Shown here piece after piece: positions 1-55,748 of a DNA stretch of 64,000 nt. Position numbers and translations under genes: made by a program. Source of the DNA: Cyanidioschyzon merolae (lineage: Eukaryota); assembly GCA_000091205.1 (NCBI GenBank), contig AP006499.2. One strand, given 5' to 3'. The notes beneath the pieces are model-generated. The model did not search any database. It saw nothing but the letters and a program-made list of their open reading frames with translations, and was not told the DNA's origin. Every line of letters begins with the position of its first letter. Within the stretch, counting starts at the first letter, position 1.

Positions 1-901
1 GCACATACTCACGCTTCTCACGGCATTGAATCATCTCAAGAAGCCACTTCGCTGCGCGCCCCTTGTCCCATTTGACTGCCGGTCGTAGTTCAAACACACA
101 TTTTCCGCGGGTTTTTCGGAGACCGTACTTGTACGCAATAGAATCCACAATTTTCTCGATTGTTGGCACATGCGCTGGGTCGCAGCGTCGATAATGGATC
201 GAAATCGAAAGAAGGTTATCCTCTATGCCGATGCCCCGAACAGCGTATCTCTCGGTAAGCAGCCGATCGACCTGACTCAGAAAACTTGGATCGAAAACAG
301 GCGGTGACGACGGCTCTGGCTGAATCGGCAGCGGAGGCAGCAACATGCTCCCCGGTGCTCCACAGTCGTCAATGTTACTGCACGCCATCTGCTTTGGAGC
401 CTGAACATTGGCGGTAACTGTTTCTTGTCCATCTACTCGCCGTTCGGGCTCAGGCAGATCCGATGCAGGCTCTTCGAGGCCGAAAATAGATCGCAAATGC
501 CTCGCGGCTTCACGTAGAACCGGTATGACTTCTTCCGCTATATGATAGCGGAAATATGCATCCTCTGGATCTTTAGTCTGCATCGCATCTGCAAGGGCGC
601 TGATCTCTCCATTCTCCAAAGAACTACCATTTGAAGGACGCGATTTTCGAAGAGGTACTTCTATGTCAAACCCATGCGAACCTGCATAGTATACGCCTTT
701 GATTCCAACAAGTTGTATAATTTTCTCCCGCGATCTACCTGTGACGATGGCGACGGGATATAGTCGCGCTAGCTCTTGTAAAATGCCGCGAACGCGCTCG
801 CCAAGCACAGCGCCATTTGGATCTTCTACGATGGCTGTTAACGTTCCATCATAGTCGAGGAGAAACGCGAACGTGTCTGCACGCTTTAAAAGACTATCCA
901 T
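1..901 (-). CDS. Trehalose-6-phosphate phosphatase (HAD-superfamily TPP domain) protein. N-terminal part only; the CDS runs off the left edge of the window, so it is absent from the ORF track.
   Basis: Reverse-complement translation starting at the ATG at 899-901 gives MDSLLKRADTFAFLLDYDGTLTAIVEDPNGAVLGERVRGILQELARLYPVAIVTGRSREKI...YYAGSHGFDIEVP...CVFELRPAVKWDKGRAAKWLLE. These match the TPP signature blocks: LDYDGTL (HAD motif I), VAIVTGRS, YAGSHG, and the ELRP...WDKG block. There is no stop codon before position 1. Confidence 0.75.
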   Translation of the reverse strand, partial: MDSLLKRADTFAFLLDYDGTLTAIVEDPNGAVLGERVRGILQELARLYPVAIVTGRSREKIIQLVGIKGVYYAGSHGFDIEVPLRKSRPSNGSSLENGEISALADAMQTKDPEDAYFRYHIAEEVIPVLREAARHLRSIFGLEEPASDLPEPERRVDGQETVTANVQAPKQMACSNIDDCGAPGSMLLPPLPIQPEPSSPPVFDPSFLSQVDRLLTERYAVRGIGIEDNLLSISIHYRRCDPAHVPTIEKIVDSIAYKYGLRKTRGKCVFELRPAVKWDKGRAAKWLLEMIQCREKREYV

Positions 902-3900: not shown

Positions 3901-5121
3901 TTTCCACGTGTTCGTTTGTTTTGCGCAGATGCCATCGCGGAAGTCCCTCACCGTGGACAAAATCTCTTCCATGGCCAACGTCTTTTCTAATATTTTCGAT
4001 GATCCGTTACCAGAAATGGTACTTGGTGGAAGCGAACTGGTACCGTTCTGCTTTTCGCCGGCGAATACGGTCAGGCGATGGCAAATACTTCGTTGTGAAA
4101 GAGATTCCTCTGGTTCTAAATAGGATGACACGTCGTGTTATCGATCAGCACAGCCTGAATGAGCATACAGAACACCCGCAAAAGCAACTCCGAACGCGGT
4201 CTGAGGATTCAAGGCATGGTTATTCTGGGCGAAAACCGACAGCAGCGCAATTCACGATGTGAGGTACCAGTATTATTTTCTGAACAGAACAACTCGAATA
4301 TTACTGGTGATGATCTGTACATATCCAAGCAACCTCCGAGTCCTGACTCGCGCTCCAGTGCGATGCATCAGTTGGCGACGAAGACACTGGCCTCGCAAGC
4401 TTGTACGAATCGTTGGATTCTCGCTTCCAATCGGGTCTCAGTTGCCACACGATGAAATTATCGAGCTTCTGTGGCAATCTCCGCAGAGCCCGGGCATTGA
4501 TCGCGGAGGAATAGCAAGTGCTTTGTGATGAGGACGTTTTGGGCGGACCAGTAGCAGCGTTATCCACGCGAATTCTATTACGCTGAGCTATTCCGTTCAG
4601 CACAGTCTCATTTTCCCTCTCGTCTACAGTTTCGAAAGGGCTATCAGACATGGTTCCAAAGCCAGACGGCAATACACCTCGCACGTTGTGCTTCTCCCCG
4701 CCGTGGTTCACCAAGAAAAGCTGTTCGTTACTCTCTTCCAGTTTCAAAAGCGTATCAATGGAAACGTCGTTGCCCTCTTCGCAGATAGCAGCAGCCAACT
4801 CGGAAGCTAGCATGCTCCCGCTTTCGGCCTCCGAGTAAACTAGAAGGAGCATTTCGCTCATAAATTCGCTGCATTTGGCGCATTCAAGAAATTATAGCTG
4901 TGCAGCTCGCTTTTCTTGACAGCCAGTCTTGCCTCTGCAACAGTTTACAGATGCTGAGAATATGGTAGCACGATCCCGATATGGCGATTGTGTTCGATGC
5001 GACTTCGCCCAAACGCACTTTTCGGGATTTGTGTCGATGGGAACTATGCATGCAGCGCTCGTCTGGAAAAGCGCCGCGTTTGTGCCCTCGCACCCAAGGC
5101 AACACAGATGACGGACAAAGC

Positions 5122-5770
5122 TTTTAAAGTTTGACAGAACGTTTACATTGACTATTGATTCCAGGTTGTGGGATGGATATTGGCATTCGGGAAAGAGCCC
5201 ACCATGCTGCGCCCTGCTTCGAAGTTGCATCACGCAGACTTATTCTTGGATATACTGGTCGTTTCATGAGCTCCATCGTTCGCCGAGCCTGCCCTAGTGG
5301 CCCACGGTAGCGCCCATAGCGTTTGCGCGGATGCATCGCCGAGACAGAGCGGCTTTGCCATACCGCTGGAGGCGTCGGCTTGAGGCGTGGATCATCCGAC
5401 ACGGGATCGGGATTCATCGTCATAACGTGAGCCTGCGAGCTGCGCAGAAAGACACACTGCCTGCCGGAGCGGAACGCGATATGCTACGAGTCCACCGCGA
5501 CCAGGGCGACGCCCAGACACAGTATACCCGCTCCTAGTCCCAGAATAAAGTGCGTTGCGGACGAGCTGCTCGGGTCTCGCCGCATCACGACTCGATGCAG
5601 AGGCGTATGGAGCGTCTACCAGACAGACTCGTTAGGCTCTAGGGACATTCCGCATAGAAGGTAAACTTTCGAAAATACGGAAAACTTTGCTCCTTCCAAC
5701 GTTTACAGTAGAGGGAGAAAGAAAATTTAAAAAGTTGCTATTTAATGGTTAGTTTCGCTTCCTTTATGGG
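5122..5770 (+). repeat. Copy A of a non-coding dispersed repeat family, lacking the 5' ~200 bp module. Shares conserved blocks with copies at 25941-26585, 37474-38290 and 51131-51985.
   Basis: Conserved blocks read directly in the sequence: 'tgacagaacgtttacattg', 'ggatatactggtcgttt', 'gctcctagtcccagaataaagtgcgttgcggacgagctgctc', 'ggtaaactttcgaaaatacggaaaac', and 'gttgctatttaatggttagtttc'. No conserved ORF. Confidence 0.7.
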
Positions 5771-16099: not shown

Positions 16100-16600
16100 A
16101 GGTCCTCACCAAAGGACATAAATAAGTGCATTCATTTTCTAAAATAAATTACCTAAAGAAAAAGCATGGATATGGAAGTTGAGGATCCTTGGGGGTCGTC
16201 ATCGGTGGCTGCCGGTAAAAAACGAAGAAAGTCACTTTTTCCCGATCATTGAGCACAGAAGAGAAAGTGAAGAACAAAAAGAAGAGGGCAGATAGGCGAG
16301 AAGAGGTATTTGCAGGACAGGACGACGACGAGACCCTGGTGACACGGAGGGCACAATTTCTAGCAATCCTTGCAATGATGAGTTCAACCAGCGGCAACTC
16401 ACGCAAGGAGTTTGTGAGCCGAGATTTCAATGTCGCCATCATTATCAGACGTTGTGTCGTGCTGAAGACGAGACCCGACGAGCTGCAGCGATCCTACTTC
16501 GCGAGGCAGCCTCTCAGGCTCTAAGTGTGCTGTGCAGAACTGAAGCCGAGAGCAGGTGGCCGGTCGAAAATGGCGGGGAGGCGTCTGTGAATGAGTATAT
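16100..16600 (+). mobile_element. Truncated 3' fragment of a TnpB/Fanzor-like element: the RuvC-III coding tail plus a conserved downstream non-coding segment.
   Basis: ORF 16249-16524 ends with 'FVSRDFNVAIIIRRCVVLKTRP', to be compared with 'FVNRDFNAAVNIRRYAVLENRP' at 53.6 kb. The downstream 'aggtggccggtcgaaaa...gaggcgtctg' is conserved with 53790-53850. The upstream 'gtgcattcattttc...gcatggatatggaag' is conserved with 31300-31350. Confidence 0.6.
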
Positions 16601-19302: not shown

Positions 19303-19469
19303 GAGAGCTTAGTCGGTCGCTTGTGACGTGGGATAAAATCCCGTACGAAAACGACGACTGGAGCGAATGGCTCTCGAGCCGACGCCCTCAACCGTGCGGC
19401 AATGCCATTCGGTCGCGGTGATGCATCCACACGGGAGCTACTGGCGCTATCGCGGGCGATCACTGTCGG

Positions 19470-19560
19470 CACTCGGGGCACGATGGAATGTATGAAGCGA
19501 CCAGTATATCCGAGAAGAAGTATGAGTTACGGAACTTGGAAGCAGGGAGTTTGATGGATG
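19470..19560 (+). repeat. Short ~90 bp conserved module 'ggcactcgg.gc..gat.g.a...tatccgagaagaagtatgRgttaYggaacttgga'. It is also the 5' module of repeat copies at 26398-26500 and 51131-51235.
   Basis: Direct sequence comparison of the three loci. Non-coding. Confidence 0.55.
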
Positions 19561-20810
19561 CTTCACTGCGCGCTGATATCAAGCACACTGTCGGGGAACG
19601 CATGCCTGTGTAGACGTTTTGCCCATTGTAAAAAACCTGTGCGAGGTTCCAAAGTCTACCATATGCGATGCCGCATTTATACTTCTTCCCAGCCTCGCTC
19701 GGTTGCGCTGGTGCGGCAGCAATTCTGCGTAGACATCGAGCACTAGTGTGCTATCTTTCCATCCTCACACGATCCGTGTGTGTGACCAAACTCCCAGGGA
19801 TCCGCGGATGCTGCCGGGAATCTTGGTATGGATCGGGCGCTCTTAGGGGATTTCTTCTAAAACTTAGGATTTGTACATATGACCAGACCTGCTTGGATGC
19901 GCACCTATCGATGACAACTTTGTCGTGGATCGAGCGCTCCATTGCGGGCAGGTCACGTACAGGCCATTGAACGAATCGATCCAAGGCGTTTCATACAAAA
20001 ATACGTTGAACTCGCCTGGATAGTTGCACAGTCGCCAAAATCATAACACAGAAATGCGCAGCCGCGAAGATTTTCTGGCGGTGTACAATCGGAGCAAGTC
20101 TGTCCATTATTGTAACGGCTGCGACTTCACGCGTACAGTTCATCCACATGGGTTCCAACCGTGTCGCGAGTCGCTGTCCTGGAGCGGAGCAGCAAAGCGG
20201 AACAGGAAATGCAACATGTACCGGCGAACAAGCAGTGCAGATTGCCTCGCGCAACACGATGATAGTGGTGAGGCTTTCGAGTCGTCCGGATTCGGAAAGG
20301 TGACGTCCCCCTCCCAGCAACTTCAGAGAATTTGCTCGCTGCTTGATCCAGCCGGCGATCATTTAGGAAAACGCGCATTCCGGATCCAGACCACTGGAAA
20401 TATAGCAAAAGGGACTGAGTTCAAGCTCTTCCACCACAAGACCGGCGGTTCACTCGAGCATAATCAAGCTAGATATGCTATTCGACAGAGAGCTCCATCA
20501 TTTTTAGGACTCAGGGAGACCAGCTGGAGGCTGCCTCTCTCTGGAAAAGCACCAGCACGCAGGACTGGTTCAAAAGCTACCCATGTCAAAATTCGCGTTA
20601 TGAAACTGAGCTGAAAATCAGCTCATCTGAACGAAGGTTTCCACGCTCAATTGGCCCATTCAGCAAGCCGCTCTGAGCAACCAGCTAACATTAAAGTCAA
20701 AAGTTGTACCATTTTCGTTGTAAACGCACACACGCCGCGAAAGCGAGTTCGTCACATGCGCCATTCGAGTGCTCACACACCGCGTCTCCTCCAGAACTGC
20801 AGTTGGCCCC

Positions 20811-25610: not shown

Positions 25611-25940
25611 AACACAACCTGTTGTGCTCGCTGTCTATTCTCGTTCTCCAGTCGAACTGAATGAAAGCTAAAAGGCATCGCGGATGACAGTCGGACAGGA
25701 AACGCTCGACAATGAACCCTACCGGCTGACCGCAGCGATGCGAAGCGGCGCATCAGCGTACAGGCGCGATCGATCCCCTGAGCGCCGCGCGCGGCAGCGA
25801 AGGGTTCATGCGCCGCTGCTCGCCGCGATGCTCGCATCCGATCCGTTCAGAACTGTGGATAGAAAGCATGATCTAGTTTGTGAATATATGTCTATTAATT
25901 GCATATTATGTACTGATTCTGGTTGATAAGTGGTTTTTTC

Positions 25941-26585
25941 GATGACAAAAAAATTCGTTTCCATTGGCTATGGATCCCTGGTTGCGCGATGGATAATGGT
26001 ATTTGAAAAAGCGTCGATGATGAAGCACCTATGCTCAAGTTCCATTACCCACACTTCCTCTCGGATATACTGGTCGTTTTTTACATGCTACCATGTGCTG
26101 AATGCCTGCCGTGAAAACCCTCCGTGGTGCTTACACCCCTGGAGCAGAGCCATCACGGAGACAGAACGGCGTTGCCATCCGACTAAAGGGCGTCGTCTGG
26201 AATTGTCGTTCACCCGACATATGGTCGGGATTCGGGATCATTCTGTGAGCCTGCATGCTGTGCAGACAGACGTACTGCCCGAGGCAGCGCGAAGCGATAT
26301 ATAAATAGCTCACTGCGACCAGGGCGATGTCCTCAGTCGGATGGCGCAGCTGTTCTGTCTCCGTGATGCTTCTGCTTTAGCGGTATGAGCGCTACGGCAG
26401 GTGCTCACGGCAGGTACTCGGCGCAAGATAGCATGTACAAAACGGACAGTATATCCGAGAGGAAGTATGGGTAATGGAACTTAAAGGTAGGTGCTTCATC
26501 ATGGACGCTTTCCCCAAGGGCATTATACATATGCCGAATTCTGGGAAGCATGTTCAATGTAAAAGTTTTGTCATCGAAAAATCAA
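25941..26585 (+). repeat. Copy B of the non-coding dispersed repeat family, rearranged.
   Basis: Shares the 'cgatgacaaaaaaattcgtttccattgg', 'ggatatactggtcgtttttta' and 'cattctgtgagcctgcatgctgtgcagacagacgtactgcc' blocks and the 5' module 'tatccgagaggaagtatgggtaatggaactt' with the other copies. It contains a perfect 19-bp internal inverted repeat, 'catcacggagacagaacgg' at about 26150 against 'ctgttctgtctccgtgatg' at about 26350. It ends with an inverted copy of the 'atgacaaaac.tttacattg' block at 26555-26580. Confidence 0.65.
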
Positions 26586-31259: not shown

Positions 31260-31700
31260 CAGTTTTCAGCAGGAGCATTGGAGTGCATTCATTTTGAAGG
31301 AATGAATAATCCAAGGTGAAGCCATGGATATGCAGGACAGAGATCCTGTTGTCCCAGTGTTGCCGTATACGACCAATAAAACGAAAAATCTATTTCACGC
31401 GAACCATCGAGCGAAAAGAGCATAGAACGAACAAGAAATAGAACTGGGGAGATGGGCGATAAAAGGTGTTTGCTGGACTGGACGATGCCGAGACTGAACT
31501 TGCACTGAATACACGAGTTCGATGAGTCCCTGCATTGATGAGTTCAACCTGGTTCAATCAATACAAGAGGTTCACGCAGCGTGACTGCAACGCTGCTAGC
31601 AGTATCAGACGATATTCGATGCTCAAGACGGGACGCGAGGAGCTGACACGATCCACACTTGTTGGACAGCCTCTCAGGATTGAAGTCTATGGCGAGATGC
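31260..31700 (+). mobile_element. Second truncated TnpB/Fanzor-like 3' fragment (degenerate RuvC-III tail plus conserved flank).
   Basis: The 5' boundary block 'gtgcattcattttgaagg...gccatggatatgcagga' is shared with 16113-16190. 'gcattgatgagttcaacctgg' is shared with 16375-16395 ('gcaatgatgagttcaaccagcgg'). The peptide is 'FTQRDCNAASSIRRYSMLKTGRE'. The downstream 'gacagcctctcaggattgaagt' matches 16503-16525. Confidence 0.55.
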
Positions 31701-34279
31701 TGCAATTGATAGCATACGGCAAGTCGATATGGGCTGAGATGCATCTCTCGGGTGGATGCTCATTGACCCTCTATGGTCGCGGAACGTTTGCGATGCATTG
31801 TGCATCCTGGGGATCGCTTGGCGTCTCGCTCGAGGAAACTTCGCCTAGCCTCCTTCGCATTGATGCAACTCGTCAGGCAACTATTTCCAGTCTCGAACGC
31901 GGGGTTGCGAGCGGTCCACATTCCCCTGAAATTTTTTTTACCAAACCTTCGTGAGACACGACAACTAATTTTGGGATAAAGTATGGGATCCGGCTTGATC
32001 CTCGGATCAGAGAATATGATACATACGCTACTCTGAATCCCTCGGCACGACGCCGTACCACGTCGCTAATCAAAGCATGTACTTCGCTGGTGCGAACAGT
32101 ATCAGACCGACCTAAAACAGCAATATTGCGTGCTCGTCAACGCCGAGCGTTACTTCAACCGCACCTTTTGGGTGCTGTAGCCCTACTTTACTGGCTCGGA
32201 AAATTGGAGACTGATGAAACGGAATCTTGGGATGGCGATGGAAGCAACTGACTAGCTCGTGGTGGAAGACATCGAAGTAGCAGAGAGTTCGGAACAGATG
32301 TCGCAACGATACTTAGCGTCCCGTCAAATCGTCGATGTTTGTCGTGATGATCTCGGCCACGGAACGACGAACCTCTTACTCAAAGGATGGTGAAAAGGTG
32401 ATGCACCCTTCATTGCATCTTGCGCTGCCATTCGTTCACGAATGGAGTTATCCAGAGCCAAGCTTACCCTCCCTTCGAATCAGAGCACACCAGCCGCAAC
32501 ACGCGTCTCTTTGGTGTGGTTCTCGTACGGTACATCAAGACCCAGAAAATAACTCAAGATATTTGCATAGTGTACTGAATAGCCTCCTTCGCGAGCTATA
32601 GCTCGAATTTGCGAGCAAGTATCAAGCATTCGAAAAAGTTCGCCAAGGCTATTGGGAAAGCTTGTCCAAGCATTCTGTTTCACAGAAAGGAATTAGATAG
32701 AGGATGAACGGGTGATGGAGACCAACGGAATACACATCTGAAAGAACCATGTGAAACTTTAGCCTAACTCGATCGCGGAGACTCATTTCCGACCGTAAAA
32801 GGTAGATGAAGCGCAAGAATTCGCGGTAAGTGGGAAACCCTGCTTACATTAAAAACGTGGTAGTCTCCATATCTCTCAATCGCCGGGAACGGAGCCAAAG
32901 ACCTGAACGGAAATCGGATGAAGCTGCTCATGTCTTGTAGGGCTCGGTATTATCGGGAGCCGGGCGTGATGTCCAACAGATGGCGTTCGAACAAATGGAG
33001 CACCAGCATAGTCGGAACCCGTCACGACGCTGCAAGCATCATATCAAGCTGAGTTGGATACATTTTGAGCCTCGCTCAGAGGGCATTTTAGCTCCCAGAT
33101 AGCTTATGAGCGGAATTTTTGGCGGGCATACATGAAAACGTGCTGGGGCCGCCAACAGATTCGGTTGTTCACAGGCCATAGGCTTGCATGAGCCAAAATT
33201 TTCAATCACTTTCAAAATGAAATGAGCGACAAATCGGGACGTTTGGTTGAAGCCTACGGCGCTGGACGTGATGAGGCGCACATGCGCTGCGCTTGTACTC
33301 CTTCGGCGAGAGCATGTAAAAATTGTGGGAATTTGATTCTGCATCGGTCCAATTGCCGTATTCAGGACGTCATACTCGAATCACGAGCACAGGTGTACGG
33401 TTGAACTGGAACAGAGGGAGAGAGTGAAGCAAAGCCGGATGCATGAGATGGTGTCCAATAAACTGACCCAAGCTCAAGTGGCGAGGCATTTGACGGTGAG
33501 ACGCTTGTGTCTTGTGATTCCACCAGCAGCAAATGCGCAAAATAAGTTGCTGCTCTGAGCCTTCAGCGTCTTGATCAACTTCCGCATTTGTCTCGTGCTT
33601 CTGAAGCGTCCAGTGGCTTTCTGTCGAGTAAACTTTTAGGGGAATGGAATAGAACTCAGCGTTGACATTCTGCAGAAATGCTGTAGGCTTCCAACGAAAA
33701 AATAGGTAACCAGAAGAGTGGAGACAGGATTATTGGGACGTGCATGGCGCTGTTGTGCTAGGGTCAGCAATTAGGAGAGGTGGGTGCTCCTTCTAGATGC
33801 ACTGGGACGGCTTTCCTCGGTAACTGGTGAACGATTATCATTTTACATGGCATTCATTACTGAGTATACTCAGTGTTGAAAATGAACCGGATTTCTACGT
33901 CCTCAGTTCAGAGAGTGAATCCAAAATCAGCCTTGCTCCCTAAGTGTTGTTATTCTTCAACGTCTTGATGCCGCCCCCGTAGCCACATACGACGTGCAGG
34001 ACAATCCCATCGAGTACTGGAAGCTGGCACCGGATCGCAGCAGCGCACGAAGCGATACACCAAGCAAGGAGACCTGCACCAGTAAATGCGGCTGGCGAGG
34101 TAATCAGGACAAGCTCGCCATAATGTGTATGAATGTCTTTCACAAAAGATACCTGCATAGGTGCCGAGCAAGGAAGCTGCCAACGCTTCTACTCTGTCGC
34201 TGCCTTCACGCTGTACATATAGAAGTCAATCGCCGGCATCCAGCGGCTTTCACGAGTAGAGCCCTGTCACGGATTCAGC

Positions 34280-36974: not shown

Positions 36975-37473
36975 CGCAGTGCCACCATGTGCGACATTTC
37001 ACCGCATTGCACCCTACTGTTTTCGGTTGGAACACGAGTTCCCACGCCGGCTACCCGAAAACTGCGTGCCGAACGAGCCGTCAAGCGTTCGTAGACGACG
37101 AGACACTTTTCGGATCTCCAGACTAGAAAGTTCTTATTTTTTTGTAACAGTAAAACTACTTTGGCTGTTTCGTTTCGTCATCAGTTTCGCTGTTCTTGAA
37201 CGTAGATCGAATCCAATCATAAGGCTCGATGAACCAAAAAGCTGTCAGGCCCACTAGCAGACCCCAACGTGCTGCTGCTCCAACATCTACTGGACGTAGC
37301 CGACGGAAAAGCTGCTGCAAAGCTGGTACACCTCGAGGTCTCGCTGCGTTCATATCACAAACACAAGTGTCTATCCCCGGAGCACCTCGAAAACAACTCG
37401 TACAGCGGTCAGTCGTCCGGGATGCGCGATGTGCCCTGGCGGCCGCACGCGCTGCGCATTGTCCGTTTCTTTC

Positions 37474-38290
37474 TCGATGATAAAATTCGGTTGACCATGG
37501 ATCCCAGATTGCGGGACATATAATGATGATTGAAAACGCGTCCATCTTGATGCATCTTTCTTCGAGTTCCATTGCTTTCACTTTCTTTCGAATATACTGG
37601 TCGTTTTTTACTTTCTATCATGTACCGAGTGCCTGACTGCGCCCACAGTAGCGCTTATACCGGTGGAGCTGATGCAGCACGGATACAGAACAGCTGTGTC
37701 GTACCACTGAGGGTTTCGGATCGAGGAACGATTCACCTGATACGGAATCAGTGCGGACAATCATTCTGGGAGCCTGAAAAGTGGGCAGAGAAACCTGGTG
37801 CCTGCAGCAGCGCGGACCGATATGCTAGGAGATAATTGCAATATTGGCGACGCCCAGACGCAGTATCCTAGTACTTGTCTAAGAATAAAGAGTGTTGCCG
37901 ACAAGCTGTGCAGGTCTCGCCACAGCACCTGCCACTCGAGGGAGTATGAAGCACTAGCCCGGCAGACCCGTCCGGTTCGCGGGACCTTCCACACAGAAGG
38001 TAAAGTTTCGAAGATACGGAAACCTTTCCCCCTTCAACGCTTTCCATGAAGGTCGAAAGAACCTGTTATTGAGTTGCTATTTAGTGGTTAGTTTCTGTTC
38101 TTTCGACAGTGGATCGGGATTCGCTTTCATTCTGGGAGCCTGCAGACTGCGCAGACAGACCTACTGCCTGCGACAGCACGGAGCGATACGCAAGGAATCC
38201 ACTGCGACCCAGACGACGCTTAGACGCAGCATATCAGCTCCTAGTCCCAGAATAAACTGCGTTCCAGACAAGCTGCTCAGGCCGCACTAA
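37474..38290 (+). repeat. Copy C of the non-coding dispersed repeat family, carrying an internal tandem duplication of the ~190-bp 'cattctgggagcctg...tagtcccagaataaa...gacaagctg' unit (about 37737-37930 and 38125-38290).
   Basis: Shares the 'tcgatgataaaattcgg', 'cgaatatactggtcgtttttta', 'tgcctgactgcgcccacagtagcgc', 'ggtaaagtttcgaagatacggaaacc' and 'gttgctatttagtggttagtttc' blocks with copies A, B and D. The ORFs called here (37156-37581, 37229-37480, 37798-38049, 38069-38290) are not conserved between copies. Confidence 0.7.
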
Positions 38291-42762: not shown

Positions 42763-45539
42763 CTGACGAGGGCAAGCAAGCCTTTAGGAGCCTCCTCAGT
42801 AGGAGGCTCTCTATCTCGTGACGCAAAGATCAGCGGCGGAAACCCGAAAACAGAATCCGCCTGTTTGATGCGGTACAAGGCATCCGGTATTCTGGCGGTT
42901 GCCCGGCACACGCCTGCGCTACGTCCGAGATGCTTGTAATGCTTTCGCTGGGCAAGGAGGCTGTATTTTGAAAGCTTTCAATTTAAAGTGTACATTTACT
43001 AATTTTTGTACCACGTACCGCTAAACTTCGTGCAGGTTATCTTTTTCAAGCAGTTTGGTGTCAGATATGGCAGCTAAAGTGAGCAAACCTTCTATATGGA
43101 AGATGTTGGCGATCGTCGTTCCAGGAGAAAGTTTTTGATCGAGTTGCAACGGCGTAGTGGTGCTGGGAACGATAACTAACCGTTTCGCTTCGAACTTGAA
43201 CGGCGAAGTAACCACAGTGTTTCGTTTTGGGCGCTTGCATGGAATATTTTATGATTCAAGTTCCCATTGGAGGTGAGACTTTTTACTCAGTGGCAAAACG
43301 CAAGGAGGCCGAGCGGCGACTCGCGCGCTTGGCCTCAGAGTCACCAGGGAGCAGTGCCGATTCTTCTGTCCTCGGCTCCAACGTACCCGCAACGCCAGGA
43401 CTGGAACGAGCTGGAGACGTCTCGTTGAGTCATGATGAAGAGGTTTCTAGCGAAAAACCGAAAAAATGGCCCCGAGTATGAGAAGCTTGCCGCACGGAAA
43501 GCGCCATGCTTGCGGTGCCGTTCACATGGTAATATTAGGTGCTTTCGCGTGAACGCGGTTGCCCTGCCATGTTTTTCATAGTGGAGCATTCCTTAGTCAA
43601 TCAGGAGATACAAGGACACAAGAACAATGCTGGTACTCAGGGTGTGGGTTCCAAAGCGGCATATGCGCCGTTTGGATTGTATCACGTCACAACGGGACTG
43701 GGCGTATGCAGAGATTGCAGCATACATGAACGCTGCCGTTGACCAGAGATGAAACCTCAACTACCGACGAGTTATCGGAATGCAGCACCTGCTGCTGCCC
43801 TGAGCAACACGTCCTACCCCGTTGCTTGGTCAAATGTTTCGCTCGTTTGCATGAGGAATCCTATCTGGATTGCTCTTGTCATGCAGACATATTCAGCAAT
43901 ATCCAATAGCGGAACCCTAGTACAGCTCACCAGTTGTGCGGGAAGATCGTTCCCAGTACATACGTATGGTGCTGGAGCCTCACCAGAATCCTGAACGCAC
44001 CACGCGAGACTCCATTGCCCCCTTTCCTGACCACTGAGTTTTTTCCATCGGAAGTCGTTAGTGTTTCAACGCAATGCCGAAACTGGGAACTGAACGATTC
44101 CATAGAAACTTTGCTCGACAGAGCCGGTTAACGCTGTTTAGCCCCGAGAAATTTCCGGAGTTTACTCGATTTGTTCAAGTTTCGGTGGAGAGAGTGCATG
44201 CGCGCATGGTTGCTGGTGGAATCAGACCAAAGCATGCCACTCACCTTCGTTTACCTCACCATCTGAAGGTCGGTTGTTCTGGAGTGACGAAAAATGGCGT
44301 TGTCTACGAGCCGGGCAGCATAGCGTGGAGAGGAGAAGCCACGAAGTGTGTTTCTCCTCAGGATGAAGTCGTACGCGATCCTGCACATGTCGTATTTCGT
44401 AGGTGACCGCAGTATTGAATCGCCGTACGCGCAAACATTATCGGGAAACACACTTATCCCTTCTGTACGAACACCATTTTACTCTTCGTTGGCGACACAT
44501 ACATAGTTCTAAGCTTTCTCTCGAACCAAGTCTCATCGAACGAGAAGAGCATCCGTCCTTAACGTAACAAGAGTTCGCGCGTCAGAATCGAATCCACTGT
44601 GTATTGTTCAAGGCGCAACGCTCTCCCACAGACGCACTCTTTTTTTCCTCGGCCATCCATGTCTCTTCTTCACCGCTCGTATTGACAGTGCGAAAACCAC
44701 AAATCATGGAACTGGGTTTTTGATGTTTCTCAGAGAACGCACGAACAGGACTGGAATGACCTGGAGAGAGTCGTACAGAGAAAATTTGCTGAGTTCTATG
44801 TTGAGTGCGCGACGTTCAGACTAGGGACACAGCAAAGACTGCTTCAACTACTTGCTGAACATTAATTGGCTGACTTGGATAAGTAAACCCGTTTTTCGAT
44901 AGGTAGCGGTGATTCCATGACGTCTCCCCGCGATGTTTCTCCGCCCAAACGATACACCCTTTTCGAAGAATAGTCGGAAGAAAAAACAAAAACAGAAACT
45001 GCGTGCTTGTTCAAGAGTACTGGAATTCACTGCTCACCGAACATAGCAACGAGACTTGTCATGGCGAAAGAATCTAAGGGCGTGTCAGATTAAAACAGAC
45101 CACTGAACTGGGCGCTCTGTTCATCGCTTTCGATTTCCGAACTGTTTCATGTACAGCCCCGACATTTGATGCGCGGTTCGAAGAGCTTACGAATGCATAT
45201 ACTTTTAGAACTCTATGCTGACTTCTCGGAATGTTTACTTCGATGCTCTTCTACTGGAATTCGTGACATCAGTGTAATCAAGATGATTCGAAACGCCCCC
45301 GAACAATGGTTCGTGCACTAAGCAACGTCATTATCAAATGAATACGTACATGCCTCGACTGTTCTCCTTTGCTTACGTGTCGCCAGCTTCAATCAAGCAT
45401 ACTTCAAGGTTCGAAATTTTCGTTCCGAGCTAACTCCTGTACGTTGCGATTCTAGCGCCTGACTTGATGATAAGAGCGACTCAACGTCGTCCGCTGAGAA
45501 CTTTTCTGGAAGCTCATACGGAAAGTTCATTCAAGTTTT

Positions 45540-45620: not shown

Positions 45621-47179
45621 TGCTACATGTCAAGCAATATGATTCCAGAAACTCCCGTTTTTCTATCTGGATGGACAATTGGTCTTGGATTTGGACTTCA
45701 GTCATCACAGAGAACCGTTTCTATCCAAGGTACACCTCGGCTTTGCACGAAGAAGCTTAGGCTAATTAAAAAGTTCCCGGCACGGTCTCCAGTCTTTGTT
45801 TTCATTCTGATACCATTTTTAGGGAGAACAAGATCGAATTCCACGAATCCTTAATGGAAAAGAAGAGCGAGCGCTTCCACGTGCAACGGACATAGTCCTC
45901 CCCGAGCCAATCGCCCAGAAGAAATCAGGAATCTTAGAGTACGGTGCTGGACGCGAGAGCGGAGGAAACATCCAATGAAGCTTTCTGTGCCTATCAAGCG
46001 AACGCACCAACTGATGAAGAAAGCATTCACGTGCCGCAGCGCTGCGCTTCGATGAAGAGAAGGTGCGGTGGACGCATGGGAAACCGCACCCCAGCCCAGC
46101 GTGACCGGTGCGAAGGACACACCGAAGATGTACACAAAGCAGATGAAAATAACCAGAGGATCCCAGCTGGCAACGATCGTATATTTATGAAACGGACCGC
46201 CAACACCGGGACGCAGTGAATTCCGGATTTTGAGGCTGCCATCAATGTATCTCGACTGCTAAAATCGTAGCTGGAGGCACAGCAGAAACCAGCGCATTAG
46301 AAACTGAAGATAACAGAGTCGAAAAGGAAGCAGTGGTAGAAAGGATGCACAAATGCTAATGCTGATGGCAGTGGGAAAAGAATCAGAGTTTCAGACGAAC
46401 GCTAGACTTCGACAAGGCGATGCATTTCATTCGATCCAAACAGTTCAGTACAAAATATCAGTGAAATAGAAAATGTCCCGCGACCATGCAGGATCAATGA
46501 GCACCCACGGATAGATGCCTCCCAGGCTTTTTTGACCCGCTGTCTGCTATCGGTTTCAGCTTCTCACTGTACGCTTCGAGCGTGAGGGGATGTCCAACAA
46601 AATTTGGACCCCCAGCTCCTCGGGTCCCGTCTCCAGCACCGCATATCGTCTGATACTGATGGCGGCGTTGAAGTCTCGGTTCATAAACTCCATACGTTTT
46701 GATGCCTCTAGTTGATCTTATCAATGTGCGTATTCCCCGAGCTCGCGCTTTCAGTACCATTTGCTGCTCTGCCAACTCTCCGTGCGTGTCCAATGCCGAA
46801 GCGCTCCGTTGGCTTCTCTCCGTTACGGCCTTCTGAAGCGTACATTCCTGCTCTTTCCATAAGTTTGAACATGAACGCACTTCCTGACGCCTTTAGATGA
46901 TTACTTCCCCGGAGAGAGACGGACTTGCTGAGGGACTATGACATGTATTCCCCGTGTGTCACCGTGTGCTGAACGCATTAGCGATTCGCCCAATGGAGCG
47001 ATCACTGCGTACCAAGATAGAAAATACTCATAGGATGGGGTTGAACCACGGAGCTAACGGAGCAATGGAAAGCAACTGTATCCCTATAGAATTCGCAAAA
47101 GCTCGGGCGCAAGGGGAACGATGAAATGCAACGTTGTCCGATAGAATAGCGTCTCCAGACCTGCAGAGCAAAAGTCTTC

Positions 47180-50398: not shown

Positions 50399-51130
50399 TA
50401 TCCAGCGTTATACACAACAATGAAACTGCGAGTTGCAATCAAGTAAGAACGCAAACGTTCATGCAACACGAACGGAAAAATCGTTTCGTGATCATCGACG
50501 ATGGGCGGCAGCGTGCTCGCGATGCAGGGCTTCGAAGGATCGCGGCGTTCGGTGCAGCGGAATCGGGATGCCAGAGACGCCAGCACACTTAACCTTTCTG
50601 TGCCTGTGCTGGAAAAAAAGAACGCAGCTATCTCTTTGAGAGACATCAACATCTGGGAATCACTGTGGTAAATGAAGGCCAGCCACTTACTTTGAGTGTA
50701 GTGCTAGCAACTGATGGTCCCGTAACTGAGCTCCAGCACTCACCAGTTGTCAGCGAACTCATACTCTACCCCCTAGGTGGAAGGTCCAGCGAACCAGATG
50801 CGCACACGGGACCAGTGTTACGCGTACCTAATCACTGGTGGGTGCCAAGCACAGACCCGAGTCGCCAACCGACGGCAACGCTTTCCATGTACGATCACGC
50901 AGGAGAGAGGCGGCTCCCAGGATTCATCGTAACAGCCAAGTTTCTCCAATGTGTTGTGAAGCGAAAGCAAGTTTTGCATCCGCAGGCTGTCCGAGCACAA
51001 ACTGACAACGAGACCCAGTTCTACGTCAGGTGAAGCATGCCTCGAGCAGACGCCGTCTGCGGTACGGCAACGCCGTTCTGTTTCTGTGCTACGACAGCAC
51101 CGGCGCTACAAGCGCTATTGAGGCGGATGT

Positions 51131-51985
51131 TCACGGGCAGGCACTCGGCGCCCGATAGCACGTCTGAAACACCATTACATCCGAGAAGAAGTATGGGTTA
51201 TGAAACTTGGACGTAAGGCGTGGAATGACGAAAGTTCCACCGCGCGCAGGCATCAAGCGCACAGAGTCGCGGCACGCTCGCCTGTGTGAGAAGTTTTCAC
51301 ATGGAACAAAATCCGCTGCATTTGCTGTTGCCGCTGATTTTTCTCCAATGACAAAACGTTTACATTGTACTTGGATTCCAGATAGCGAGATGGATGGGTA
51401 TAGCTGATCGAAAAAGTGTCCATCATGATGCACTCTACCTCCATGCTCCGTTCCTTATACTTCCTTTCGGATGTACAGATCGTTTTGTGCGTTCTGTAGT
51501 GCGACCGAGTGCCTGCTTTGGGCACCCGCCTTAGCGCCTATACCACTGGGACGGATGCATCATGGAGATAGAACAGCGTTGCCATACCACTGAGGGCGAC
51601 GGATCGAGGAACGCTTTACCTGATACAGCGTTGGAGTCCAGAATAATTCTGGGAGCCTGTAGGCTAAACAGACAGAACTTTTGGCTGCGAAAGCACGAAC
51701 CGATATACTAGGAGTCTACTGCGATCTGGGCGACGACCAAACACAGCATCCCGCATCTAGTCCCAGAATGAACCGCGTTGCGGACGAGCTGCTCAGGTCT
51801 CGCCACAGCGCCCGCTACTGGGGGGAGCACGAAGCACGAGTCCGGGAGACTCGTCCGGCTCGCGGGACTTTTCGCCTAGAGGGAGGATTCTTCAGAATAT
51901 GGAAACCTTTTCCGCCTTTTCAAAGTTTATCGTAGAAGGGGAAAGAAATTGCCGTATCGTTGCTCGCTAGTCGTGAGTCTCTTTT
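51131..51985 (+). repeat. Copy D of the non-coding dispersed repeat family (the most complete copy). It lies immediately upstream of the TnpB/Fanzor-like reading frame.
   Basis: It contains the 5' module 'ggcaggcactcggcgcccgatagc...catccgagaagaagtatgggttatgaaacttgga'. Further blocks are 'atgacaaaacgtttacattg', 'ggatgtacagatcgtttt', 'cattctgggagcctgtaggctaaacagacag', 'tagtcccagaatgaaccgcgttgcggacgagctgctcaggtctcgccacagc' and 'ggaaaccttttccgcc'. It ends about 225 bp before the first in-frame codon of the Fanzor-like frame (52211). Confidence 0.7.
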
Positions 51986-52210
51986 CTTTGTTCAACATAG
52001 CGCAGTCGATTTGCGCACCAGGGAGATCTGTCAGTTTCGAGTCACGACGCGTATGCTGCCGTTGAAGGGAAACGCGATCCTGATCAATAGCGTGCTGCTC
52101 TAATGTGCAAGTTGTACTTGCGTTAAAGACGTGGCAAAGTACAGTTCTTCAGTTCATTTGTGTTTCAAACCTCAAACAAGTGTATTCAACTGTTTTTTCG
52201 CAGTATATAA

Positions 52211-53776
52211 CTGAAGCGTTCAAAGTCCGTTACAAAAAATAAAGAAGGAAAGTCATGGAAAACCAAGTCGACGATCCTGGAGGCCCAGTGTGGCTGGCCG
52301 CCAGAAAAAAAACAAAAAAATAGTGCCGAGTCCAGAAGAAAGCGAAGTGAAAAAGAAGCATTAGGGGAGGCTCTACGTCGAAGGCAGCAAGAAAGACGTC
52401 TGTACAACGAGATGGCGGTGAAAGCCTGTCTTCGTAAACATACCAAGGATCCGTACAAGGAAAAGTTGCGAGGCGCTATCAGAAACCGTGTCGAGTTCTA
52501 ATCCATGAGTATTATAAAGGCGTCATCAGTACGAATGCATTTGGTGTCGGAGATGTACGGAGACGTGACGCACATGGAAACAGTCGAGGTTCCGGATGCG
52601 TTTTCCGACAAGACTTCTATTCGTCACCTGATGCTTGGTACAGGGGAATCGTCGACGAAAAAAGAGCTAGTCCATGCCTTCCACGAAAACTTTGCAGATT
52701 TCCGCTTCGAGGGTACTCGATACAAGGGTGACGGAAGTATTTACACATACGGGGCGATGAAGTACATCACGAACCTGAGGAACCATTTGACTATGAACCC
52801 GGAGCGTTTCATGATACGCACCGTCTTTGCGCTGTACCCGGGACTGTCTCGCAAAGGAGTATGGGCGATTATCAATGGGATCACGAACGATCGCAAGCAT
52901 GAAGATGACAAGGAGGCGGATCTCGCGACGAAGAAAGTGCAGGATAACGACTCTGTCGTTCACGCGGACCCTGGGAATACGAATATCATAACCATCGCAG
53001 CACCCAAGCGTGGGGAAGATGGTACTGACGGTACCTTGCGTCAGAAAGATATGTGTCTTTTGAGGTTCTCGAGAGCAAGATACTATCGAGAATCCGTTAT
53101 AATGAATGCGAGAAAGAAAATCGACACATGGAATGCAGGAATGAAGGATCACCTGGAAGCTTTGAGGGAGGTGACGAGCCACGGGGCGGACTTTACAGCT
53201 TCTCGGAAATTCATGGAAGTTCGTGTTGCTCATTGGGATGCGCTGTAGAAAGAATATACAAAGCCCCGGCGGGCTCGTTTGCGTATGAATTTGTATTGTG
53301 GGAGGCAGCGTGCATTCGCAATCTTTTTCAATGAGTTGCGTGCCCTGAAGGAGGACGAGCGTCAAAGTCTCGTAGTAGCATACGGAGCAGGGCGCTGGAA
53401 GACCCAAAAAGGATGTACACCAGCTCCAACGACAAGAACGTACAAGGAGTGCGCACGGCGTTTTGTTACGGTGCCTGGAGATGAGTTCCGAACATCGTAT
53501 GTGCATCATGAACTGTGATGTACGCTTCAGAGAGTGGAGATGGAAAAGTGCCAGAGGAGCCCTGAGGATATAAAAAAGTACGGAGCGCTGACAGATGAGC
53601 AAATGGAAAGGAGGGCGAAAGTTCGAGGATTGCTTGCATTAGTAAGTACAACCAGTGATGGCAAGAAACGTATGGAATTCGTGAATCGTGACTTTAATGC
53701 CGCCGTCAATATAAGGAGATATGCGGTGCTGGAGAATAGACCTCCAAAGAAGACACAACAGGACTTAATTGGATAA
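52211..53776 (+). pseudogene. TnpB/Fanzor-like (OrfB_IS605-type RuvC RNA-guided nuclease family) gene, about 520 codons in one frame. It is interrupted by three in-frame stops: TAA at 52498, TAG at 53246 and TGA at 53516. It is probably a decaying element gene, though I cannot exclude very short introns.
   Basis: All three ORF-track segments (52505-53248, 53279-53518, 53534-53776) and an upstream segment (52211-52497, '...KRSEKEALGEALRRRQQERRLYNEMAVKACLRKHTKDPYKEKLRGAIRNRVEF') lie in the same frame. Motifs: RuvC-I-like 'VVHADPGNTNIITIAAP' (compare GIDxGxxN); RuvC-II region 'LVVAYGAGRW...YKECARRFVTVPGDEFRTSYVHHEL' (compare IvxEdL...YKA...V.VdE.yTSk.C); RuvC-III 'MEFVNRDFNAAVNIRRYAV' (compare D-x-N-A-A-x-N-I). 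The zinc-finger region is degenerate. Confidence 0.6.
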
Positions 53777-54140
53777 TCACTCAAGGTGGAATTATATGAG
53801 ACAATATTGGAAGCGGTAGTAGGTGGCCGGTCCAAAAAACTAAGAGGCGTCTGCACGTCAGCTGAAGATGTCTAGTCTAGGGCGGGTCACTCGCCGCTAT
53901 TGTACACGGCCGCTGGTGGCAACGTTTTTCGTTTGAAAGGCGTTTGCTGTCTGTCGATCGAAGCCACCATAGGCTCACACCTAACTAGAAGCCCCGGTTT
54001 GAAACTGCATAGGCAGCGTATAGAGATCCAAATCGTCGACAAGCCACTTCTTCTCAATGCTCGCGAGCGAGCAGTTGCAAGTATTTGGAGGACACACTCG
54101 CTCGAACTAACGCACCTGTCACTGCGAGCGGTTCCACATC

Positions 54141-55748
54141 ATGGTTGTTGTAGCGCACTTACTCTACGTGACGGTTTCCGTGCACGCAACTTTAGACGAG
54201 ATTCTTAGCGGTTGGGGTCGGAACTTAAAATGCGTCCTAGATCGGAGGCGCCCTGGCCTCGCAGGGCCTAGAGACACCCGGCCTCGACCAAGGTCAGGCG
54301 GGCACGTTCTTGACGCATTATTCGCACGCAAGCTTCCTTTTCCACCCAAGGACTCGTTTGATGGGTGGTGCACGGCGCCACTTCAGACGATGGCTTCGCT
54401 ACCTTCTCCGTGGCCCATCGTGGCGATAAAGAAGCGTCGGCGAATCGTCTTTGCAGGGTTCTCGGTGACGCGGGCAGTTTTCAAAAGGATAACTGAGTCG
54501 TTTCAGCAGCGCTGGCTGGCGAAAACCGGAGAAGATGTCGACTTCGGTCTGAGTTTTGCGGGATCTGGTATTCAGTCACGGGCCATTCGGGACGGTCTTC
54601 CAGCGCATGTATGCTGCTTGGCGCTCGTGGATGATATCGAAAAGCTCGCACGCGGGGGCTTCATTGACCAGGCGTGGCGGATGCGAACCCCCTACAACGG
54701 TATTGTTGCCCGCTCGCTGACGGTGGCTGGATACCGTCCTCAGTTGGACGCATCTCCGTCGACGGATAAGATATGCGAGTGCTTCTACGATATTTTGGCG
54801 AAGAATCTTGCAGTCATTACAGCGAATCCGAAATCAGCGGGAGCTGCACGGTGGAATTTTTTAGGGTTGTGGTCCGCGGCGCGCTCCGGAACTATGCGCT
54901 TCGAACCGACATTTATTCAGAATGCGCTGCAAGCGAGGGACTCGACAAAGAACGCGATCCTCCATCGAATGCTCGAGACGGAGAATGACTGGATTGCTTT
55001 GGCCTTTCTCAGAGAGGTGTATCTCCGGGCTCCGGTGCTCCCGCGGGACGGACGCGATGCCACCGATGTCTTTCTGCGCCAGGAGCTGGGTGACGTGCTA
55101 ATAACGTACGAGAATGAGGCCATTTTGGCTCAGATGCGGGGTCTTCCCCTCGCGTACAGCATACCATCAGCGGAAGCCAACTGTCTCATTGAGTTCCCCA
55201 TCAGCGTAGTGGACCGGAACGCAGACCGCGAGAAAGTTCGGGATGTCGCTGATGCTTTTGTGGAATATTGTTTCAGCGACGAAGCACAACAGATTTTTGC
55301 TGACTACGGATTTCGCCCGGTTTCTGAGCGAGTGTTTCAACAAGTTCGGGAAAGATTTCCATCCCCCAGTATTTTAGAGACTGTAGATGAACACTATGGT
55401 GGATGGAGTGCCGTCATGCAGAAATTTTTCGTCACCGGGGCAGTCTTCGATATTCTTTTAGAGCAGGTATCACTTGAGCTCTTGCGTAGAAGGAGAAGTC
55501 AGAGGCGATGGATCTTCGGTGGCAGGCGCGGCCGAGGTGCACAGCAGGGCAACATTCCACACCACAAGCACGCGAACCTGGTCATGGACTCTGACGAATC
55601 CGAGCAAAGCACCAACTATGCATCAATGCAAATCCCGAGAACGAATCTCGTCGTCGTCGAATACGAGCAGCAGCAGCAGCAGCAGCGTCTATGTCGAGAC
55701 GGGATATCTGACGAGCGTTGCATACGCGCGGCTTCTTGGCTGCAGTAA
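54141..55748 (+). CDS. sbp: Sulfate/thiosulfate-binding protein (Sbp/CysP-type periplasmic-binding protein) homolog. It has an N-terminal extension, possibly a targeting peptide, and a low-complexity poly-Gln C-terminal extension.
   Basis: 'VDFGLSFAGSGIQSRAIRDGLPAHVCCLALVDDIEKLARGGFIDQAWRMRTPYNGIVARS' and 'ITANPKSAGAARWNFLGLWSAA' match the E. coli Sbp blocks 'IRQSHGGSGKQARSVIDGL.ADVVTLALAYDVDAI..RG.ID.NW...LP.NSAPYTSTIVF' and '[22 protein letters not shown]'. The C-terminal about 100 aa are Arg/Gln-rich, and 'EYEQQQQQQRL' is encoded by (CAG)6. Confidence 0.8.
   Translation: MVVVAHLLYVTVSVHATLDEILSGWGRNLKCVLDRRRPGLAGPRDTRPRPRSGGHVLDALFARKLPFPPKDSFDGWCTAPLQTMASLPSPWPIVAIKKRRRIVFAGFSVTRAVFKRITESFQQRWLAKTGEDVDFGLSFAGSGIQSRAIRDGLPAHVCCLALVDDIEKLARGGFIDQAWRMRTPYNGIVARSLTVAGYRPQLDASPSTDKICECFYDILAKNLAVITANPKSAGAARWNFLGLWSAARSGTMRFEPTFIQNALQARDSTKNAILHRMLETENDWIALAFLREVYLRAPVLPRDGRDATDVFLRQELGDVLITYENEAILAQMRGLPLAYSIPSAEANCLIEFPISVVDRNADREKVRDVADAFVEYCFSDEAQQIFADYGFRPVSERVFQQVRERFPSPSILETVDEHYGGWSAVMQKFFVTGAVFDILLEQVSLELLRRRRSQRRWIFGGRRGRGAQQGNIPHHKHANLVMDSDESEQSTNYASMQIPRTNLVVVEYEQQQQQQRLCRDGISDERCIRAASWLQ
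55668..55685 (+). repeat. (CAG)6 microsatellite encoding poly-Gln inside the Sbp C-terminal extension.
   Basis: Read directly: 'gagcagcagcagcagcagcagcg'. Confidence 0.9.

Follow-up and report, generated by a model that had tools for sequence, protein, structure and literature searches.

Which element does the interrupted reading frame at positions 52211-53776 (+) of a 64,000-nt stretch of the Cyanidioschyzon merolae genome (GenBank assembly GCA_000091205.1, contig AP006499.2; hereafter the window) belong to, and can it still specify a protein? An initial annotation of this DNA had seen here a TnpB/Fanzor-type RuvC nuclease gene. Our analysis leaves little doubt that window 51348-53942 is one old, non-functional copy of CMe-1A, a repeat of this red alga, and that it carries a Fanzor1 pseudogene. 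The locus is part of an already published repeat family of the same species, and it is a decayed member of that family, not its consensus. The nuclease assignment was borne out by 83-87% identity to the published Fanzor1 element and by the structure model of a relative, which matches Fanzor1. The presence of a Fanzor copy in this intron-poor alga had also been presented as noteworthy, a point that does not stand because the family was published for C. merolae in 2013 (PMC3627910).

Identity and decay of the CMe-1A copy

CMe-1A is the sole Fanzor1 family listed for C. merolae by Bao and Jurka (2013; PMC3627910), with ~150 copies that are each ~80% identical to a 3169-bp consensus. Its protein, CMe-1, has 734 amino acids (aa) encoded in a single exon and was placed within the Fanzor1 phylogeny, and intact open reading frames (ORFs) are retained in some copies (PMC3627910). 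The family was described as having no terminal inverted repeats (TIRs), no determinable target duplications and an unknown class, and the 635 bp at its 5′ end share 95% identity with TE-N2_CMe, a non-coding repeat in its own right with ~70 copies (PMC3627910). We took the consensus DNA and the CMe-1 protein from the supplement of that study (Mobile DNA 4:12; Additional files 2 and 3; PMC3627910) and compared both with the window. Consensus 3-1553 aligned by blastn to window 51348-52903 with 82.9% identity, and consensus 2124-3169 to window 52895-53942 with 87.2%. When the published protein was used in tblastn, the two halves of the gene were found at E-values of 1e-172 and 1e-81; residues 1-21 matched in frame 1, and residues 30-236 (64.5% identity) and 407-721 (83.5%) both matched in frame 2. 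Matches of this strength are not to be expected by chance. The host is the same as well, as two ORFs of the window are exact C. merolae 10D proteins (BAM82058.1, fumarylacetoacetase, and BAM82067.1, sulfate-binding protein). The copy therefore agrees with the family in its identity level of ~80%, in a TE-N2_CMe module followed by a Fanzor1 ORF, in the lack of a conserved TIR and in its host.

Translation of 52211-53776 (+) gave one frame of 522 codons that is interrupted by three stops and closed by a fourth, and the motifs previously read in it (DPGNTN, GDEFRTSY and RDFNAAVNIRR) are all present. Both proposed gene ends have to be moved. As delimited by tblastn and block alignment, the pseudogene extends over 52255-53880 (+) and is the remnant of a 734-codon ORF (consensus 906-3110). 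The ancestral start is the ATG at 52255 (protein MENQVDDPGG...), which lies in a frame other than that beginning at 52211, and the leader of the CMe-1 core (consensus 637-905) occupies 51986-52254 (+) between the TE-N2 module and this ATG. Comparison of consensus blocks revealed a frameshifted stretch at 52312-52365 (+), where the gain of 2 bp (52312-52313) and the loss of 1 bp (52364/52365) lead from the ATG frame into the 52211 frame. The first ~35 codons of the latter are untranslated leader or out-of-frame sequence. At the other end, the TAA at 53774-53776 (+), which had been taken as the end of the gene, is a premature stop that replaces CAA (Gln700); the ancestral ORF reached ~53880, where its stop maps, and the element ends at 53942.

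Codon comparison with the consensus showed the origin of each internal stop on the plus strand: TAC (Tyr82) became TAA at 52499-52501, TGG (Trp524) became TAG at 53246-53248, and GGG (Gly614) became TGA at 53516-53518. The last of these falls in the degenerate former zinc-finger segment, as the initial annotation had stated. Its positions for the second and third stops were also correct, whereas the first had been placed one base off, at 52498. Exactly three stops, one of each type, had been counted; this holds for the interior of the frame but omits that the terminal TAA is premature and that a further TGA occurs at 53863. In the C-terminal tail (53838-53865, +) alignment to the consensus revealed a 1-bp deletion at 53838/53839 and this TGG to TGA change at 53863-53865. 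At every stop the consensus has a sense codon, and the two sequences align there colinearly and without gaps; introns and recoding are therefore excluded. Hence the suggestion of very short introns is not tenable, and the argument that had been raised against readthrough or recoding gains from the frameshifts and from a deletion of 193 codons.

This deletion is in frame and comprises 579 bp (consensus ~1554-2136; CMe-1 residues ~217-409). Its junction, recognized from overlapping BLAST segments, lies at 52895-52908 (+), and consensus 1553 is joined to 2137 at 52903/52908. The two segments overlap by 9 bp (AAGCATGAA), which therefore indicates a microhomology-mediated deletion. Full-length relatives of the protein measure 600-750 aa, and for this reason too the window copy can be recognized as lacking a large internal piece. 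In the family alignment, the lost part contains a near-invariant block directly before RuvC-I (RYFVFL, VVP.C.IK.HF.T.D and ETDG), and in an AlphaFold2 model of the relative P0051 the equivalent region is predicted to form helices and strands that precede RuvC-I. Measured against the consensus, the ancestral frame is interrupted by six nonsense codons, to which three indels that shift the frame and the 193-codon deletion are added. The intact ORF of a functional Fanzor1 member is thus not found in the window copy.

The divergence of the copy was also compared between codon positions. Differences from the consensus amount to 9.7%, 9.8% and 20.2% at codon positions 1, 2 and 3, respectively, and 73 synonymous and 107 non-synonymous codon changes were counted. 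Because third positions differ most, part of the divergence predates the death of the copy and arose under purifying selection. Of the earlier proposal of a recent pseudogenisation, the pseudogene stands and the recency does not: the consensus divergence of 13-17% and at least 10 disabling lesions, the 579-bp deletion included, leave a recent event unsupported.

For comparisons of ends, flanks and orthologues we used 71 related metagenome loci (L001-L071). Among these, no locus spans the deletion junction or the unique flanks of the window copy, and no empty site was found. A 75-80-bp tandem repeat (25 aa, KHEEKKEADPATQEVQENDFVV-like) just upstream of RuvC-I varies from 1 to ~5 units among the copies in these loci. 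It is located at consensus 2117-2196 and window 52895-52966, and the right breakpoint of the 579-bp deletion is the start of a unit.

Fanzor1 features and the putative guide RNA

A large protein collection contained 111 relatives of the translated frame, most of them from metagenomes of the Joint Genome Institute (JGI) and 73-82% identical at ~56% query coverage. Uninterrupted ORFs exist among them (for instance P0001, 752 aa), and many bear the precomputed Pfam label PF26935 (DUF8286). The clade has many members, as a profile search of 1.84 billion representatives retrieved 4068 proteins at E<=1e-3 and 477 at E<=1e-30.

In the window copy, the catalytic Asp is kept both in RuvC-I (DPGNTN, 52967-52984, +), which was read from the translation and aligned to the DPG of GtFz1, and in RuvC-III (RDFNAAVNIRR, 53687-53719, +), which was identified by translation and hhalign. 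The RuvC-I Asp and the RuvC-III Arg-Asp (RD-x-NAA-x-NI) are invariant in a nine-sequence alignment of the family and align with GtFz1 and with CRe-1 of Chlamydomonas reinhardtii. The canonical RuvC-II position is occupied by the strand VVAYGAG (53372-53392, +), which has Gly for the canonical Glu and aligned to VVVGWGS of CRe-1. In GDEFRTSY (53477-53500, +), aligned to IDEYKTS of CRe-1, an alternative catalytic Glu is followed by [TS][TS]; this Glu of D-E-F-R-T-S lies 33 residues beyond VVAYGAG. Such an arrangement is the rearranged site known from Fanzors, in which Gly or Pro stands at the canonical RuvC-II Glu and an alternative Glu is found downstream, before [TS][TS] (PMC10530073).

When a profile of nine relatives was searched against all Protein Data Bank (PDB) sequences, the only match was the Fanzor1 protein GtFz1 of Guillardia theta; it is weak (E 0.019), and the DPG motifs align. 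For structural comparison, AlphaFold2 was applied to the full-length relative P0051 (49% identical over 52% of the query; pLDDT 74.5, pTM 0.64) and not to the truncated window copy. In a Foldseek search of this model against the PDB, the best seven matches were all Fanzor1 structures from cryo-electron microscopy (SpuFz, PpFz and GtFz), with E-values of 5e-15 to 2.3e-13 over the full length, a probability of 1.00 and template-modelling (TM) scores of 0.42-0.58, depending on hit and normalisation. The next-best match was Cas12f (E 3e-3). In addition, hhalign matched the family profile to the zinc-finger-bearing CRe-1 with 86% probability (E 4.8e-6), pairing VVAYGAG with VVVGWGS, VDEFRTS with IDEYKTS and NRDFNAA with NRDVSAA. 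By three independent tests (PDB profile match, Foldseek and hhalign), the CMe-1 family is, as predicted from sequence profiles and a modelled fold, Fanzor1.

The Fanzor1 and Fanzor2 proteins characterised so far are DNA endonucleases that are guided by an RNA (omega-RNA or fRNA) and depend on a target-adjacent motif (TAM). The 3′ end of the element specifies this RNA, whose sequence can extend into the final codons of the ORF (PMC10432273, PMC10530073). The 3′ non-coding end of CMe-1A occupies 53881-53942 (+) in the window and terminates at ...GAAAGGCG. In an alignment of 57 distinct 3′ ends the flanks diverge after GGCG, which gives a sharp 3′ boundary. Folding of the last 20 nt (53923-53942, CGTTTTTCGTTTGAAAGGCG) allows an 8-bp hairpin, and a hairpin of at least 6 bp is possible in the terminal 20-24 nt of 33 of 43 distinct ends. 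Other Fanzors suggest by analogy that a guide RNA may be encoded in the region 53881-53942.

The ancestral CMe-1A encoded a Fanzor1 of 734 aa. CMe-1 may have been a single-RuvC endonuclease guided to DNA by an RNA transcribed at the 3′ end of the element that encodes it; as judged from other Fanzors, such an activity could have aided the persistence or spread of the element. The window copy is unable to produce this protein, with 193 codons presumably lost by a microhomology-mediated deletion, a frameshifted N-terminus and accumulated nonsense mutations. It would persist as inert intergenic DNA upstream of the sulfate-binding-protein gene.

Several results speak against the Fanzor1 assignment or its RNA-guided mechanism. 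The C4 zinc finger (OrfB_Zn_ribbon/TNB, PF07282), which belongs to the motif as defined in 2013, is lacking in CMe-1 and in its relatives. Between [TS][TS] and RD the CMe-1 consensus reads THHELGC...EKC, with no second CxxC, and the relatives P0058 and P0107 have no Cys in the former zinc-finger region. PF07282 remained below threshold in eight full-length relatives (best E 0.006, 17 bits versus the Pfam cut-off of 26.3). We read this absence as a lineage-specific loss and not as exclusion from Fanzor1. Moreover, the stop-masked translation had no match in Pfam-A, NCBIfam or the PDB sequences (phmmer), and with single-sequence searches null the Fanzor assignment therefore rests on the relatives. 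The profile check proposed in the initial annotation thus gave no Pfam-A or NCBIfam match, while homology was obtained via relatives, profiles and fold. Used as a refutation test, the absence of a profile match would have misled, since Fanzor homology is visible only by that route. Likewise, no guide RNA is demonstrated: the 3′ hairpins are conserved as sequence, with covariation not above controls. RNAalifold gave 0 consensus pairs on the aligned 3′ ends. Two explicit 3′ structures, which differ in the register of the terminal hairpin, had 78-80% paired cells, and their covariation was matched or exceeded by many of 500 shuffles. A search of window 50500-54500 against Rfam returned nothing at E<=1, and RNA-guided, TAM-dependent double-strand DNA cleavage by CMe-1 is not reported in the papers that we found.

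We also weighed explanations other than a decayed Fanzor1 copy. That the locus is a functional gene, in which very short introns, readthrough or recoding bypass the stops, is extremely improbable. Its three catalytic motifs are indeed still legible in one frame, and intact ORFs do occur in some CMe-1A copies (PMC3627910). However, the stops substitute sense codons in the gap-free consensus alignment with nothing intron-like inserted, three different stop codons are used, and the loss of 193 conserved codons is accompanied by a frameshifted N-terminus and by a frameshift and stop at the C-terminus. A co-opted remnant could consist of a truncated protein from the 247-aa ORF at 52505-53248, which begins with ATG, or of promoter or regulatory DNA for the sulfate-binding-protein gene at 54141, as the end of the element lies 198 bp upstream of the BAM82067.1 ATG in the same direction. 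We consider this very unlikely: the ORF crosses the deletion junction, has neither RuvC-II nor RuvC-III and is without a Pfam match, the substitutions follow the family pattern with decay added and show no copy-specific conservation, and none of the 71 related loci holds an orthologous copy that bears this deletion.

The TnpB/Fanzor likeness itself might be due to chance short motifs in an unrelated repeat-encoded protein (Pfam DUF8286). The lack of a curated profile match, the sub-threshold PF07282 in the relatives and the missing zinc finger would all fit such an explanation. It does not account for a predicted fold that matches Fanzor1 structures exclusively and over the full length, for a profile-profile match to CRe-1 that aligns all RuvC-II and RuvC-III landmarks, for the alignment of the RuvC-I DPG with GtFz1, or for the place of CMe-1 in the original Fanzor1 phylogeny (PMC3627910), and its probability appears negligible.

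Modular ends and other remnants

The decayed CMe-1A copy starts with a 5′ module at 51348-51985 (+), which according to the alignment to the published consensus is TE-N2_CMe (consensus 3-636). A conserved element ("copy D") had been placed directly 5′ of the gene at 51131-51985. Its part from 51348 onwards is indeed this TE-N2_CMe-like module, but the remainder merges it with part of an inverted repeat (51025-51215). This TE-N2-like repeat of ~700 bp lies at 50553-51318 (-), head-to-head with the 5′ module; it was found by blastn, with its right boundary read from the sequence, and its core at 51025-51215 corresponds to CMe-1A consensus 86-271 on the minus strand. The same inverted repeat abuts the CMe-1 core on the 5′ side in four metagenome loci (L013, L019, L022 and L030; 74-79% identity). 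Most environmental CMe-1 copies begin at consensus 648-690, without TE-N2, and their upstream sequences form at least three groups. CMe-1A is thus modular in its 5′ part and constant at its 3′ end.

Directly adjoining the 5′ end of the consensus, the window contains the T-rich run GATTTTTCTC (51338-51347, +), which either belongs to the element without having been recorded or is its preferred target. Of the 16 TE-N2 5′ ends listed from the window and from metagenome loci, most have a comparable T-rich run in front of them. In the window, runs of the type GATTTTTnTTTC were observed before TE-N2 5′ ends at 51338-51347, 5119-5131, 37465-37474 and 25932-25939. TE-N2 terminates in GTTTCTGTTCTTT, and the CMe-1 3′ end contains GTTTTTCTTTTG. 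The similar T-rich motif at the examined module ends may represent terminal sequence that has gone unrecorded, or else a site of targeting or recombination. At the 3′ side, the flanks of 56 copies and window 53943-53950 are non-random, and most start with TT[T/C/G]G (TTTG, TTCG, TTGA) or GTGG. Either the element may extend a few bases beyond the 3′ end given here, or constraints may act on the target.

Some traits of the copies might be taken for those of non-autonomous Helitron2 elements: 3′ hairpin potential without covariation, T-rich 5′ junctions and five 3′-only remnants in the window. A 10-nt inverse match, which 0 of 500 shuffles reached, connects consensus positions 5-14 with a site that precedes the 3′ end by 62 nt. 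As evidence of a Helitron2-type asymmetric terminal inverted repeat this match was rejected, because the hairpin loop in which it lies varies, and a comparison of 41 copies showed no conservation of it. A link to Replitrons was set aside, as none were detected in red algae (PMC10288648).

T-rich motifs of the type GTTTTTCTTT occur at the examined TE-N2 ends and at the 3′ end of the core, and 5′-truncated 3′ remnants are common. CMe-1 might conceivably consist of a Fanzor1 core that is constant and sharply fixed at its 3′ end, combined with interchangeable 5′ modules (TE-N2, the inverted TE-N2 relative and at least two others), in place of the simple 3.2-kb unit of 2013. Such a pattern would point to one-ended or rolling-circle-like copying (Helitron2/IS91-style) or to site-specific cassette joining, with the last ~100 nt doubling as guide-RNA gene. 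We regard this modular organisation as rather unlikely and put it forward only tentatively. If true, it would give a class to a family listed as unclassified and would concern a zinc-finger-less Fanzor1 from a thermoacidophile.

Further repeats related to CMe-1A are found in the window. Solo copies of TE-N2_CMe lie at 5132-5764 and 37475-38103, and partial copies at 19373-19563, 25940-26327 and 26325-26576. The last two are truncated copies in tail-to-tail orientation, which form a near-palindrome at 25940-26576 (consensus 1-380 on the plus strand at 25940-26327 and 1-248 on the minus strand at 26325-26576). Solo 3′ fragments at 16264-16596 (+), 44119-44292 (-) and 46503-46853 (-) comprise only the C-terminal and 3′ end of CMe-1 (consensus ~2739-3083); the first and third have 69% nucleotide identity, and the second was detected by tblastn only. 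The excess of 3′-only remnants recalls the 5′ truncation of Fanzor-carrying Helitron2 elements in Chlamydomonas. A second, far more degraded Fanzor1-like relic is located at 31815-33678 (+) and 31490-31726 (+). It is spread over three frames with 24-47% identity to family members and, in relatives such as P0051, P0058 and P0060, corresponds to the part from about residue 90 up to the C-terminus. This relic may be older or belong to a separate lineage; Bao and Jurka list one C. merolae Fanzor1 family (PMC3627910).

The CMe-1A copy ends 198 bp (53943-54140) upstream of the ATG at 54141 of the BAM82067.1 gene for a chloroplast sulfate ABC-transporter binding protein, which has the same orientation, and the insertion therefore occupies the presumed promoter-proximal region of that gene. 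An antisense ORF of 311 aa (52667-53602, -), an ORF of 122 aa in the upstream repeat and the sense ORF of 247 aa (52505-53248) had no Pfam match. The coding strand at the locus is purine-rich (GC skew +0.11 to +0.21, AT skew +0.13 to +0.16), and we regard these three ORFs as by-products of this composition, most likely so for the 311-aa ORF. In the protein collection, P0089, P0109, P0110 and P0111, which contain methyltransferase, carboxyltransferase and glycerol-3-phosphate dehydrogenase domains, gave weak partial matches over 11-31% of the query at 69-79% identity. This suggests that they are gene models running into CMe-1 fragments.

Significance and comparison with known systems

The locus itself matters little, as it is one of ~150 decayed copies and no working protein can be encoded by it. 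For annotation, its value is that CMe-1 remnants in C. merolae should be masked as repeats, since some public gene models appear to be fused to such fragments. The interest of the family lies in a zinc-finger-less Fanzor1 lineage, in uninterrupted environmental ORFs and in a codon-position signature of past purifying selection. C. merolae lives at high temperature and low pH. An intact CMe-1 member together with its putative guide RNA could be a candidate for a thermostable RNA-guided nuclease, which concerns other copies than the one in the window.

Bacterial TnpB (IS200/IS605 and IS607) represents the ancestral RuvC nuclease family, and CMe-1 resembles it as an accessory nuclease that is encoded by the element, with a putative RNA guide from the right end. 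In contrast to TnpB, CMe-1 has no TnpA partner, carries ~300 extra N-terminal residues and the rearranged glutamate, and resides in a eukaryotic host. With the Fanzor1 proteins of known structure (SpuFz1, GtFz1 and PpFz; PDB 8gkh and 9cer-9cf1) the CMe-1 clade shares the predicted overall WED-REC-RuvC fold, the RuvC-I Asp, Gly at RuvC-II, the alternative Glu in D-E-x-x-T-S and the RuvC-III RD-x-NAA. However, identity is only 11-16%, CMe-1 is without the CxxC...CxxC zinc finger, and the window copy is dead.

The C. reinhardtii elements CRe-1, CRe-2 and CRe-3 (Fanzor1 on Helitron2) are also algal Fanzor1 carriers. In CMe-1 as in these elements, many copies are 3′ remnants that have lost their 5′ part, internal deletions occur, the 5′ parts vary, the 3′ end is fixed, and the DNA where the 5′ part joins is T-rich. 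CMe-1 differs from them by the lack of introns, of conserved asymmetric terminal inverted repeats and, as far as is known, of a RepHel partner, whereas the CRe proteins retain the zinc finger. With the published CMe-1A (Bao and Jurka 2013), from which it departs by the missing consensus ~1554-2136 and by its frameshifts and nonsense codons, the window copy shares the species, 83-87% nucleotide identity, both published ends (consensus 3 to 3169), the 5′ TE-N2_CMe module, the protein motifs and the divergence from the consensus that is typical of the family.

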